From: Eledone cirrhosa
Taxonomy: Eukaryota
Length of the DNA: 64,000 nt
NCBI GenBank assembly: GCA_964016885.1
Contig: OZ024754.1
Location: forward strand, 32,116,001 to 32,180,000
Direction: 5' to 3'
Numbering within the stretch: position 1 is the stretch's first letter; each line of letters starts with the position of its first letter. Of this stretch, positions 5,177 to 54,465 are shown piece after piece. The translations under genes were made by a program, and so were the position numbers. Under the pieces are notes generated by a model. The model made no database searches. It saw only the letters and a list, made by a program, of their open reading frames with translations, and had not been told where the DNA came from.

Positions 5177-5499
5177 TATATATATATATTATATTATAAC
5201 ATTAAATCATAAATTTTTTAACACTACAAGTGAAGTCATTCTTTTCCTTTTTTTCAAATATACCTAACTGTGCCAAGGATCTCACACATTTTCCAATATA
5301 TATATATGTTCATTATAAATTTTAGTACAGCATTGACGAAGCTTTAGTATACGGCCAAGCTAGCGTATATACATAATCGGTCTGTAGCTTTAGCACTCGG
5401 ATGAGGTAAGACCCCAGAGTAATAACATTACGTTCAGACAGCTTAGCAAATCAGATATAGCAGTCGGCAGTCCAACCGCATTACCAGAGCAACGTGTAT

Positions 5500-5640
5500 G
5501 TGAGAAAAACCACAGACCCTCCATCTCAACTCTACTCTAAAAGCAGAAGAACTGCGAAACCGGTAAAGGAACCAAATAAATATATATATATTTTTTAAAA
5601 TAAGACTCCAGTTGCATTTTCGATTTCATGTTTTTCTCTC
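5500..5640 (+). mobile_element. HHR element family G (degenerate core in this copy)
   Basis: Homologous to 17685-17795 and 54275-54465; GCAG..CTGC-GAAACCGGTA-AAGGA then AATAAA. Confidence 0.65.
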
Positions 5641-17422: not shown

Positions 17423-17464
<42 letters not shown>

Positions 17465-17730
17465 ACAGGGAGAAAGAGACGATTATTAGGAAGAAAAATA
17501 TATTTTTTTCCTTTTTTATCTCTCTCTCTCTTTTTTCTGGGTTAGAAAATGATTAAAACGAAATGTTTTACTTTGTGTGAAGTGTTAAGGTATTAGTTGA
17601 TTTATTTATTAATTAACAATGGCATTTATTTATCTATTTATATATTAAATAATTGTCTATATTATATATGAAATATATATATATGAAATGGAAAATGCAA
17701 CTGGAGTCTTTTTAAGAATATTTATTTGGT

Positions 17731-17770
17731 TCCTTTACCGGTTTCGCAGTTCTTGTGCTTTTCAAAAGTA
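17731..17770 (-). ncRNA. Hammerhead ribozyme, U3-A8 variant (family G)
   Basis: CTT-TTGAAAA-GCA caagaac TGC-GAA-ACCGGT-A-AAG. Confidence 0.6.
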
Positions 17771-17880
17771 GAATTGAGATGGAGGGTTTGTGGTATATAT
17801 ATTTATGAGAGAGAGAGAAAGAAAGAATGAGTGAGTGAGTGAGTGAGTGAGAGAGAAAGAGAGAAAGAGAGAGAGAGAGA

Positions 17881-19888: not shown

Positions 19889-20575
<687 letters not shown>

Positions 20576-20846: not shown

Positions 20847-20923
<77 letters not shown>

Positions 20924-20934
20924 GTATATATATA

Positions 20935-20965
<31 letters not shown>

Positions 20966-21088
20966 GAATATAGACATAGAATATTCGAAAATATTCTGTA
21001 TGTTTATAATAAACATTTTGAAGACCTAATCGCTATAGAATAGAATACGTCACGTATTACAATTAGATTCTCGATAAAAGCAAGGGAA

Positions 21089-21131
21089 GTAATCTACGCG
21101 TTTCATTCTTATTAGAAATCTTCAGGACTAC
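21089..21131 (-). ncRNA. Hammerhead ribozyme (family D), repeated every 310 bp to 22949-22991 (7 copies)
   Basis: GTAGTC-CTGAAGA-TTTCT aata AGAAT-GAA-ACGCGT-A-GATTAC. Confidence 0.88.
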
Positions 21132-23155
21132 ATATCCAGTGCTTTTATCGAGAATGACACAGCTAGAGACTTATAGAATACTTAGCTGTGTACAGGAACT
21201 GGTTTGAAAGAGCGGTTGCCGGTCCGGCAGAAATTAGAAATTGGAATAAATGCTCTGAAATAGCGATATATATGTGAATATAGACATAGAATATTCGAAA
21301 ATATTCTGTATGTTTATAATAAACATTTTGAAGACCTAATCGCTATAGAATAGAATACGTCACGTATTACAATTAGATTCTCGATAAAAGCAAGGGAAGT
21401 AATCTACGCGTTTCATTCTTATTAGAAATCTTCAGGACTACATATCCAGTGCTTTTATCGAGAATGACACAGCTAGAGACTTATAGAATACTTAGCTGTG
21501 TACAGGAACTGGTTTGAAAGAGCGGTTGCCGGTCCGGCAGAAATTAGAAATTGGAATAAATGCTCTGAAATAGCGATATATATGTGAATATAGACATAGA
21601 ATATTCGAAAATATTCTGTATGTTTATAATAAACATTTTGAAGACCTAATCGCTATAGAATAGAATACGTCACGTATTACAATTAGATTCTCGATAAAAG
21701 CAAGGGAAGTAATCTACGCGTTTCATTCTTATTAGAAATCTTCAGGACTACATATCCAGTGCTTTTATCGAGAATGACACAGCTAGAGACTTATAGAATA
21801 CTTAGCTGTGTACAGGAACTGGTTTGAAAGAGCGGTTGCCGGTCCGGCAGAAATTAGAAATTGGAATAAATGCTCTGAAATAGCGATATATATGTGAATA
21901 TAGACATAGAATATTCGAAAATATTCTGTATGTTTATAATAAACATTTTGAAGACCTAATCGCTATAGAATAGAATACGTCACGTATTACAATTAGATTC
22001 TCGATAAAAGCAAGGGAAGTAATCTACGCGTTTCATTCTTATTAGAAATCTTCAGGACTACATATCCAGTGCTTTTATCGAGAATGACACAGCTAGAGAC
22101 TTATAGAATACTTAGCTGTGTACAGGAACTGGTTTGAAAGAGCGGTTGCCGGTCCGGCAGAAATTAGAAATTGGAATAAATGCTCTGAAATAGCGATATA
22201 TATGTGAATATAGACATAGAATATTCGAAAATATTCTGTATGTTTATAATAAACATTTTGAAGACCTAATCGCTATAGAATAGAATACGTCACGTATTAC
22301 AATTAGATTCTCGATAAAAGCAAGGGAAGTAATCTACGCGTTTCATTCTTATTAGAAATCTTCAGGACTACATATCCAGTGCTTTTATCGAGAATGACAC
22401 AGCTAGAGACTTATAGAATACTTAGCTGTGTACAGGAACTGGTTTGAAAGAGCGGTTGCCGGTCCGGCAGAAATTAGAAATTGGAATAAATGCTCTGAAA
22501 TAGCGATATATATGTGAATATAGACATAGAATATTCGAAAATATTCTGTATGTTTATAATAAACATTTTGAAGACCTAATCGCTATAGAATAGAATACGT
22601 CACGTATTACAATTAGATTCTCGATAAAAGCAAGGGAAGTAATCTACGCGTTTCATTCTTATTAGAAATCTTCAGGACTACATATCCAGTGCTTTTATCG
22701 AGAATGACACAGCTAGAGACTTATAGAATACTTAGCTGTGTACAGGAACTGGTTTGAAAGAGCGGTTGCCGGTCCGGCAGAAATTAGAAATTGGAATAAA
22801 TGCTCTGAAATAGTGATATATATGTGAATATAGACATAGAATATTCGAAAATATTCTGTATGTTTATAATAAACATTTTGAAGACCTAATCGCTATAGAA
22901 TAGAATACGTCACGTATTACAATTAGATTCTCGATAAAAGCAAGGGAAGTAATCTACGCGTTTCATTCTTATTAGAAATCTTCAGGACTACATATCCAGT
23001 GCTTTTATCCAGTGCTTTTATCGCTATTTCAGAGCATTTATTCCAATTTCTAATTTCTGCCGGACCGGCAACCGCTCTTTCAAACCAGTTCCTGTACACA
23101 GCTAAGTATTCTATAAGTCTCTAGCTGTGTCATTCTCGATAAAAGCACTGGATAT

Positions 23156-23198
23156 GTAGTCCTGAAGATTTCTAATAAGAATGAAACGCGTAGATTAC
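23156..23198 (+). ncRNA. Hammerhead ribozyme (family D, inverted unit)
   Basis: Same motif on the + strand. Confidence 0.88.
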
Positions 23199-23351
23199 TT
23201 CCCTTGCTTTTATCGAGAATCTAATTGTAATACGTGACGTATTCTATTCTATAGCGATTAGGTCTTCAAAATGTTTATTATAAACATACAGAATATTTTC
23301 GAATATTCTATGTCTATATTCACATATATATCGCTATTTCAGAGCATTTAT

Positions 23352-23433
<82 letters not shown>

Positions 23434-23434
23434 T

Positions 23435-23491
<57 letters not shown>

Positions 23492-23492
23492 T

Positions 23493-23542
<50 letters not shown>

Positions 23543-23543
<1 letters not shown>

Positions 23544-23745
23544 CGAAGGAAGTGTGGTAAGGAATCAGGTGGACCATAACGCATCAGAGTTCTCGATACT
23601 TTGGGTAGTAGAGTAGGTAATAGGAAAAGGTTCAGGACCCCGACGGCAGAGTTCAAGCCATTTCGACGGCTATGTCTGGACGCAGAAATAGCCGTCGAAA
23701 CGGCTTGAGCTCTGCCGTCGGGGAAGGGGAAAGAACCGTCGGATA
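23543..23745. mobile_element. Family E diverged copy
   Basis: Same tail and fold-back as 12528-12732. Confidence 0.75.
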
Positions 23746-28581: not shown

Positions 28582-29141
28582 TTTCTGAATTTGTTTAGCA
28601 AGATTCTTTATCTGAAAACGTGTGTTGAAACCGATATTGTTATACTTTGGGAGGGTCATGTTGCCAATAAGAAACACACGCACCAGTTGCTTTCACTTCA
28701 ATTTATTATAATAAATTTATAAATTTAGGAATTTATAAATTTCCGGTTGGTTGGTTCCACAACCAGATGGATATATTGTCAAAGTTCTTTCGTCACACAT
28801 TCTGTGACCTCTTCAGTGACTGAGGATTCTTTTCTTTGTTTTTGTGCCTTTTCTTTTGTGCTGTCCTACGCCATCTTGTTTCTGTGTGTCTCACAGAAAC
28901 AAGATGGCGTAGGACAGAACAAAGGAGAGGCACAAAACAAAAGAAAAGAATCCCCAGTCACTGAAGAGGTCACAGAATGTGTGACGAAAGAACTTTGACA
29001 ATATATAAACAACCATCTGGTTGTGGAACCAACCAACCAACCAACCGGAAATTTCTAAATTTCTAAATTTATTATAATAAATTGAAGTGAAAGCAACTGG
29101 TGCGTGTCTTTCTTATTGGCAACATGACCCTCCCAAAGTAT

Positions 29142-54242: not shown

Positions 54243-54274
54243 TATTCATTCACACACACACATATATATATATA

Positions 54275-54465
54275 AAGAAAATAAGATGAAATCGAAAATG
54301 CAACTGGAGTCTTATTTAAAAAAAAATATATATATATTTATTTGGTTCCTTTACCGGTTTCGCAGTTCTGCTTTTCAAAAGTAGAGTTGAGATGGAGGGT
54401 CTGTGGTTCTTCTCAGATGTGAGAAAAACCACAGACCCTCCATCTCAACACTACTTTTGAAAAGC
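54275..54465 (-). mobile_element. Family G element (U3-A8 HHR 54347-54383) with fold-back
   Basis: CTT-TTGAAAA-GCAG aa CTGC-GAA-ACCGGT-A-AAG; ~46-bp inverted arms centred near 54418. Confidence 0.75.

Follow-up and report, generated by a model that had tools for sequence, protein, structure and literature searches.

Insertion-level signs of Penelope-like element mobilisation in a probable new non-LTR retrozyme family of Eledone cirrhosa

Introduction

Metazoan non-LTR retrozymes are the closest described systems to the sequence analyzed here. In the available sections of PMC7229834, those of coral, mussel and axolotl are non-coding tandem units of 170-400 nt with a GC content below 50%, and each unit carries one type I hammerhead ribozyme with a weak palindromic helix III. 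Penelope-like elements (PLEs) reside in the same genomes (available portions of PMC7229834 and bioRxiv 10.64898/2026.07.22.740005), and a PLE origin of retrozymes has already been argued from co-occurrence together with pLTR similarity and phylogeny (bioRxiv 10.64898/2026.07.22.740005). In the same work 8 of 9 Xenopus retrozyme dimers were uncleaved in vitro. With respect to the helper, the accessible part of a 2020 review held that animal retrozyme sequences offer no clue (PMC7761336).

PLE insertions are recognized, according to the available text of PMC8557442, by a 5'-truncated copy in inverted orientation together with a tail of 30-40 bp at one end. In vitro, PLE protein cleaves and extends each of the two strands, the tail being the stretch between two internal reverse transcriptase (RT) starts (PMC11167929). 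The single PLE examined in vitro, PAc, did not require hammerhead cleavage and acted mainly on uncut RNA (PMC11167929). That PLEs might use a circle as template has already been proposed (PMC4209133, available portion).

The 310-bp unit described here shares with the published non-LTR retrozymes its non-coding tandem organization, size, GC content (34%), single type I hammerhead with weak palindromic helix III and co-resident PLEs, and its helix II rests on a U-U mismatch, as does that of axolotl HHR_Amex2 (PMC7229834, available sections). A divergent two-arm layout, fixed start sites, a tail and (TA)n targeting are present here and absent from the retrozyme descriptions in the accessible text of PMC7229834 and bioRxiv 10.64898/2026.07.22.740005. 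While expression and circularity have been demonstrated for the published retrozymes (PMC7229834, available sections), the 310-nt family is described here from genome sequence; and whereas Xenopus retrozyme families match known pLTRs (bioRxiv 10.64898/2026.07.22.740005), no PLE with a matching pLTR was found among the loci searched here. The insertions resemble those of EN+ PLEs as portrayed in the available sections of PMC8557442, PMC11167929 and PMC4209133, which likewise have an inverted 5'-truncated arm, a tail of about 26-42 nt at one end, two internal start sites and AT-rich or (TA)n targets, together with a palindromic-helix-III hammerhead and a U3:A8 core variant in relatives (PMC4209133). 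Unlike EN+ PLEs, the element has no ORF and consists entirely of a pLTR-like unit of 310 nt, of which an arm contains as many as 27 copies. Chlamys elements such as MRC1 are likewise non-autonomous PLE derivatives with multicopy head-to-tail insertions; they belong to a clade without canonical hammerheads and resemble their autonomous partners at the 3' end (PMC8557442, available text), whereas the 310-bp unit clearly resembles no PLE end tested.

Taken on its sequence characters, the array would represent a new non-LTR retrozyme family with insertion-level signs of PLE mobilisation, for which helper and cleavage are predicted. Neither two-armed, tailed retrozyme insertions nor a cephalopod retrozyme was found in the literature covered, most subscription papers lying outside it, including the available parts of PMC7761336 and PMC13282606.

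The array in the analyzed window

The window, a stretch of 64,000 nt of Eledone cirrhosa DNA (contig OZ024754.1, positions 32,116,001 to 32,180,000), lies on the contig designated C14 of a microsatellite-rich genome of 3.0 Gb. Units were numbered on the predicted 310-nt monomer between two GUA cleavage sites (21095-21404, minus strand; position 1 = 21404). A left (TA)n target tract (20849-20964, no strand assigned) is followed by the left arm (20965-23009, RNA sense on the minus strand), in which periodicity gave 6.60 tandem 310-bp units. The first-pass annotation had described six full units plus a partial one with a single substitution at 22814 (C>T), and both statements were borne out; the substitution is G141A in RNA sense and the six full units are otherwise identical. 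The outer end of this arm falls at unit position 130, the "short" start site, and its inner end at 256.

The inner junction (23010-23018, no strand) holds nine inserted bases; this linker belongs to a 13-bp local duplication in which the insert copies adjacent sequence, and it is joined to the right arm via a TATC overlap. The right arm (23019-23357, plus strand) is an inverted exact match of 339 bp, or 1.09 units, running from unit position 137 round to 165. Its one plus-strand hammerhead (23156-23198), with a predicted cut after 23192, agrees with the inverted, plus-strand ribozyme unit of the earlier annotation. At the end of the right arm only, unit positions 140-165 form a PLE-type tail (23332-23357, plus strand) as tails are defined in the available sections of PMC8557442 and PMC11167929, and the right (TA)n target tract follows (23358-23542, no strand). 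Four features go beyond that first reading: a U-U mismatch underlies stem II, a (TA)n target flanks the array on either side, the inverted arm carries the 26-nt tail, and the family is large. The inverted unit is the second arm of a Penelope-type insertion, a diagnostic feature rather than an extra. The exact unit count, 6.60 + 1.09, is as assembled.

Sequence comparison with sister families identified a region which they keep, unit 59-165 (21240-21346, minus strand). It contains a helix (59-66/138-145), hairpins including one with a UUCG loop, the tail up to 165, and the CAUAUAUAUC tract with the short start site (130/139), and we infer that it is the RT-initiation region. At unit positions 38-50 and 84-92 (21313-21367, minus strand) a CRE-like palindrome lies upstream of a TATAAA motif; it is speculative that these form an internal promoter, and the motif is absent from the sister families. 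A promoter scan with a bacterial model, irrelevant to this genome, stayed at chance level.

Other elements were noted in the window. A GC-rich fold-back element sits directly right of the array (23636-23723), and a similar sequence occurs beside one other locus (L144:3000-3080). A further type I hammerhead, recognized by eye and missed by the automated filter, with a CUGAAGA core and a long stem II, lies at about 20055-20118 (minus strand). Hammerhead motifs of other families occur at 28816 (minus) and 28961 (plus), 54059 (minus) and 54098 (plus), and 1129 (plus); the two divergent pairs are probably small two-armed PLE-type insertions. Autonomous PLE families B and D are represented by fragments of their 3' ends at 5498-5639, 17464-17794 and 54271-54465.

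Hammerhead and predicted RNA fold

A type I hammerhead at 21089-21131 (minus strand; predicted cut 21095/21094) recurs every 310 bp up to 22955. Seven were found on the minus strand, one GUA-site ribozyme per unit as had been claimed, and the motif is present in 8/8 units within the window; the first predicted GUA cut falls at 21094/21095, where cleavage had been placed. Stem I has 6 bp (GUAGUC/GAUUAC), stem II has 4 bp over the U-U mismatch, stem III is the palindrome ACGCGU, and the core consists of CUGAAGA and GAAA. Position 7 of the hammerhead core is free to vary, and three alleles were seen there. No Rfam model matched the array at the gathering threshold, the best match below it being a weak one to Hammerhead_HH9 (17 bits, E 0.31).

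The previously reported 16-bp helix extending stem I is present. Hammerhead and helix together span 21067-21155 (minus strand), fixed variants keep the helix pairs, and the combined fold gave z = -5.75 (0/200 shuffles as good). The helix would draw the two monomer ends together, and the linear monomer is predicted to fold with its ends juxtaposed. The hairpins named in the annotation are also present, with the exception that TGCCGG-A-CCGGCA cannot form with a 1-nt loop and folds as 5 bp with a 3-nt loop. A dimeric hammerhead formed through the palindromic stem III had been suggested as well, and the minimum-energy fold of two ribozymes is predicted to pair both ACGCGU palindromes.

Circular folding of the monomer predicted -67.8 kcal/mol (z = -4.7) with a branched shape and 58% of bases paired, compared with 55% in shuffles. 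The term "viroid-like" was therefore not retained, the hammerhead occurring in one polarity only and the fold not being rod-like. Like hammerhead viroids (Avsunviroidae; available part of PMC7761336 and general knowledge), the family combines a similar size range, a hammerhead and a predicted circular monomer, and these properties would suit a viroid-like RNA replicating from RNA to RNA and occasionally endogenised. Unlike them it is genome-encoded, and it shows no sign of RNA-to-RNA replication or infectivity. On this evidence and that of the haplotypes below, we regard such an RNA as very improbable.

A genome-wide family

Family size was estimated by pattern searches of the genome itself. 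A degenerate hammerhead core gave 17,812 matches genome-wide and the exact 40-nt core of the window haplotype gave 1,522 copies. Exact unit-TA tail ends at position 165 numbered 992, and exact short ends at 130/139 numbered 1,154. Reversed-pattern controls gave 0 for the degenerate core and for both kinds of end. From the end and core lists 124 insertions were taken in positional order and mapped, all on contig C1 except that of the window; L064 (a duplicate of L038) and arms under 50 bp were dropped. The unit (310 bp, GC 0.339, non-coding, tandem) lies within the size and composition range of non-LTR retrozymes (about 150-450 bp, <50% GC), and the family is dispersed over many loci, without LTRs, its ends adjoining (TA)n. 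Its assignment to the retrozymes, already made by the first-pass annotation, is thus upheld as far as sequence characters can place it. Both flanks of an insertion are (TA)n, in which a target-site duplication is indistinguishable from the tract. The recent origin proposed for the array is in keeping with a singleton rate of 4.0e-4 per bp over 327 kb.

Repeats and inversions that are almost perfect pose difficulties for assembly, and the view presented here is assembly-based. An assembly artefact would nevertheless have to account for more than 1,000 loci spread over many contigs, which differ individually in junction and haplotype and all obey one end rule, and we hold it to be extremely improbable. 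A single case of apparent local duplication or assembly duplicate was seen at L038 (G000:C1:56257500-56267000), where the insertion is present twice with identical junctions beside an assembly gap.

Sister families, with units of about 314-323 bp and 3,177 motif matches, share the start-site region and both ends with the 310-bp family, and their core has U3:A8 in place of C3:G8. Covariation of the U3:A8 type is known from PLE hammerheads (PMC4209133, available portion), and it was observed both in the autonomous PLE_B (L145, L150, L156) and in non-coding sister retrozymes (L144, L231). A short palindromic element of another family (L153:7000-7210) combines a CUGAUGA core with a stem II that likewise has U-U at its base.

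Two-armed architecture and the end rule

Two divergent arms with RNA 3' ends outward, the inverted-copy arrangement of PLEs, were found in 102/124 mapped insertions; among the remaining 22 are loci with gaps, loci truncated at the edge of the retrieved region and loci whose second arm is tiny. The arms map end to end onto the 310-bp unit, and no RT plus GIY-YIG ORF lies between pLTRs as in an autonomous PLE. A tblastn search of the window with six PLE proteins gave no match. Median arm lengths were 3.2 and 3.8 units, with a maximum of 27.

One short and one tail end were present in 98/98 two-armed insertions with both ends read (97 independent, one being a local duplicate; four two-armed insertions cut by an edge fall outside this count). 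The short arm ended at unit 118-139, mostly 130 or 139, and the tail arm at 154-172, mostly 165. As one end of each locus was fixed by the method of selection, the free end is the informative one: it was a tail in 46/46 insertions selected by their short end alone, and 42/46 of these tails adjoin TA. The rule also held in 10/10 insertions selected by hammerhead alone, and five additional two-armed insertions fit it.

At the inner junctions (n = 102), 80 were blunt or overlapping and 22 had inserted bases; an overlap of at least 2 nt was present at 50 of the 80, compared with 18.5% in a random null. The inner ends (n = 204) were uniform round the unit (chi2 p = 0.34), with 4/204 within 5 nt of the cut where 6.6 were expected. 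Inner ends that are uniform, with no excess near the cut, indicate that the RT continues past the cut site. Inner ends seemed to cluster at unit 294-297, an artefact of extending against the window haplotype that was gone when per-locus haplotypes were used.

These observations bear on a template in the form of a cleaved linear monomer, its ends held by stem I and the 16-bp helix, with the RT jumping the nick at each turn. The predicted juxtaposition of the monomer ends would suit this, and the haplotype results described below fit it equally well. Against such a nick stands the lack of an inner-end excess at the cut in arms of up to 27 turns, and the documented form in coral, mussel and axolotl is the circle (PMC7229834, available sections). 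We consider this template improbable and favor one that is closed.

Unit haplotypes and the nature of the template

Haplotypes were compared in the 103 insertions with at least three units, indels being excluded here and from the selection counts. There were 37 substitution haplotypes, 28 of them seen once, and the haplotype of an insertion was carried by at least three quarters of its units, nearly always all. The annotation had proposed a monomer template read round more than once, and haplotypes fixed across the units of both arms are what it would produce. New variants fixed in all units of both arms require a one-unit bottleneck. Among minority variants in turns covered by both arms, 68 were confined to one arm compared with 8 that were shared, a test which loses power if most singletons post-date the burst. 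These data favor a one-unit template common to both arms, compatible with a circle without proving covalent closure.

Private variants could also arise if RNA replicated on RNA. T232C has 10 copies genome-wide, comprising 8/8 units of L040 and two lone units, and no genomic parent was found in the assembly, the two isolated copies sitting in other backgrounds; this would suit the viroid-like reading. The singleton rate predicts, however, that about 12% of units carry a new variant, a figure comparable in order of magnitude to the 27% of insertions whose haplotype was seen once, so that no extra RNA replication is needed and the private variants are explicable without it. A second variant, A88T, is fixed in three arrays and occurs as a lone unit in a fourth array of the same background, which is a possible parent (chance background about 23%).

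The shared minority variants came from three insertions, six from L043 and the others from L074 and L181. In L043 (G000:C1:136717500-136727400) each arm starts with two turns of a first haplotype and continues with a second, a pattern that agrees with a linear multimer and that a single monomer circle leaves unexplained; L043, L074 and L181 look like multimer-templated insertions. It could be supposed that the same PLE machinery usually copies an uncut linear multimer from a source array, with the hammerhead acting otherwise or rarely. Variants shared at the same turn in both arms of these three insertions, and the weakness of stems II and III, speak for this. Set against three such insertions are the 28 once-seen haplotypes fixed in all units, a fixation in both arms that is impossible without the one-unit bottleneck, and the sparing of the ribozyme by fixed variants. 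We judge an uncut multimer unlikely as the usual template.

Arms were also found to differ in L116 and L144. In L033, L110, L123 and L218 variants recur with irregular spacing between turns, which points to long arrays having expanded as DNA or been collapsed in assembly. Probably a minority of insertions reflect multimer templates, switches of template or subsequent change at the DNA level. As a general explanation, the scenario of bioRxiv 10.64898/2026.07.22.740005, in which the insertion starts as a single unit or a short PLE-terminal fragment and then grows at the DNA level like a satellite, draws on these same four arrays, and such growth would homogenise units too. It does not account for private variants common to both multi-unit arms, for independent fractional arm lengths or for random inner ends, and expansion at more than 1,000 loci would have had little time at a divergence of 4e-4 per bp. 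We rate it as quite improbable, below the nicked monomer. Taken as sequence evidence, the pattern points to a template that is monomeric, probably circular, and under selection.

Selection on the ribozyme

Disruptive substitutions, meaning those in the core or breaking a pair, made up 1/35 of fixed substitutions compared with 26/130 of singletons (Fisher p = 0.018), as scored against the window haplotype and with 14 regions having been picked on the exact core. Within structured sites the difference was 1/7 fixed versus 26/30 singleton (p = 0.0006). Among the 35 distinct fixed substitutions one breaks a pair, none falls at the 12 scored core positions, and six in helices keep pairing. A fold of a three-sequence alignment showed compensatory change in 3/14 pairs, too few sequences for statistics. 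That fixed variants spare the ribozyme fold points to selection on the ribozyme.

Candidate Penelope-like helper

The genome contains 10,595 GIY-YIG candidates, 150 of which were scored, and the presence of RT and GIY-YIG domains was confirmed. A full 775-aa open frame was present in 22/150 scored matches to one family, PLE_A. Among eight fetched copies of PLE_A, the two-armed ones had one tail and one short end in 6/6 cases, with the short end about 126-130 nt after the cut. By eye, the PLE_A pLTR hammerhead has a CUGAAGA core, a U-U stem II base and a palindromic stem III. An intact RT-GIY-YIG PLE with the same insertion pattern is thus found in the same genome. PLE_A (L159, L255-L262) is young and probably still active; intact 775-aa ORFs are numerous in this family, and its C-x4-C-x2-C linker motif would suggest an affinity with Neptune or Nematis.

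Comparison of the unit with the ends of PLE_A, B, C and D gave only a 26-nt match in the hammerhead core, to PLE_A (E 0.02), and no clear homology to these ends outside the core. No autonomous PLE with a matching pLTR was present in 50 of the 150 GIY-YIG loci, eight full-length PLE_A regions or 30 sister loci; no PLE ORF was in line in any of the 30 sister loci, and the 124 mapped insertions of the 310-bp family were free of PLE arms. A hybrid insertion in (TA)n was observed at L227 (G000:C1:4921866-4924891), where an arm of PLE_A 3' end (99%) and an arm of sister retrozyme unit are joined directly through a 31-bp fold-back; it is a single case, belongs to a sister family and is tailed at both ends. 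One pattern search for sister-tail hybrids gave no match and was not counted as evidence. From the insertion structure it appears very probable that the 310-bp retrozyme is mobilised by a PLE; PLE_A is the best candidate for the helper, its chances of being the right one standing about even.

Discussion

We consider it likely that the array is a young insertion of a non-coding hammerhead retrozyme of 310 bp into (TA)n, for which a PLE RT-GIY-YIG protein copied one monomeric, probably circular RNA from both strands of the target. Arrays would be transcribed, and neighboring hammerheads, by the predicted fold, would pair via the ACGCGU palindrome and cut out 310-nt monomers, which would be ligated into circles as in published retrozymes. 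The presumed PLE protein would then cut both strands of a TA tract, and two cDNAs would be primed at fixed internal sites, 130/139 and about 165, as the end pattern of the insertions displays. Each cDNA would circle the unit a variable number of turns with no stop at the cut site, in agreement with the arms observed. Joining of the cDNA ends by short microhomology or a few templated bases, the pattern found at the junctions, would yield divergent arms and one tail through a repair route that is presumed. A more specific version, in which a single 310-nt circle sits on a PLE_A RT dimer and is primed at two fixed sites from both strands of the TA break in two independent runs, is tentative and, to our judgment, somewhat more likely to be wrong than right.

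The enzyme that moves animal retrozymes and the circle as template have been proposed previously and not demonstrated. Support at the level of insertions is offered here by ends that obey the PLE tail rule, by a haplotype common to both arms, by cDNAs that continue past the cut site and by the signs of selection on the ribozyme. The predicted 310-nt RNA and an intact 775-aa PLE protein in one genome provide both parts of a direct test, and the same test bears on the inverted arms and tails of PLEs and on multi-turn cDNA synthesis from a circle by a PLE RT. If the reading of one circle on a PLE_A dimer is true, the arrays would be a genomic record of the Penelope reaction, and the retrozyme would be a satellite of a named, intact PLE with its ribozyme selected in each round.
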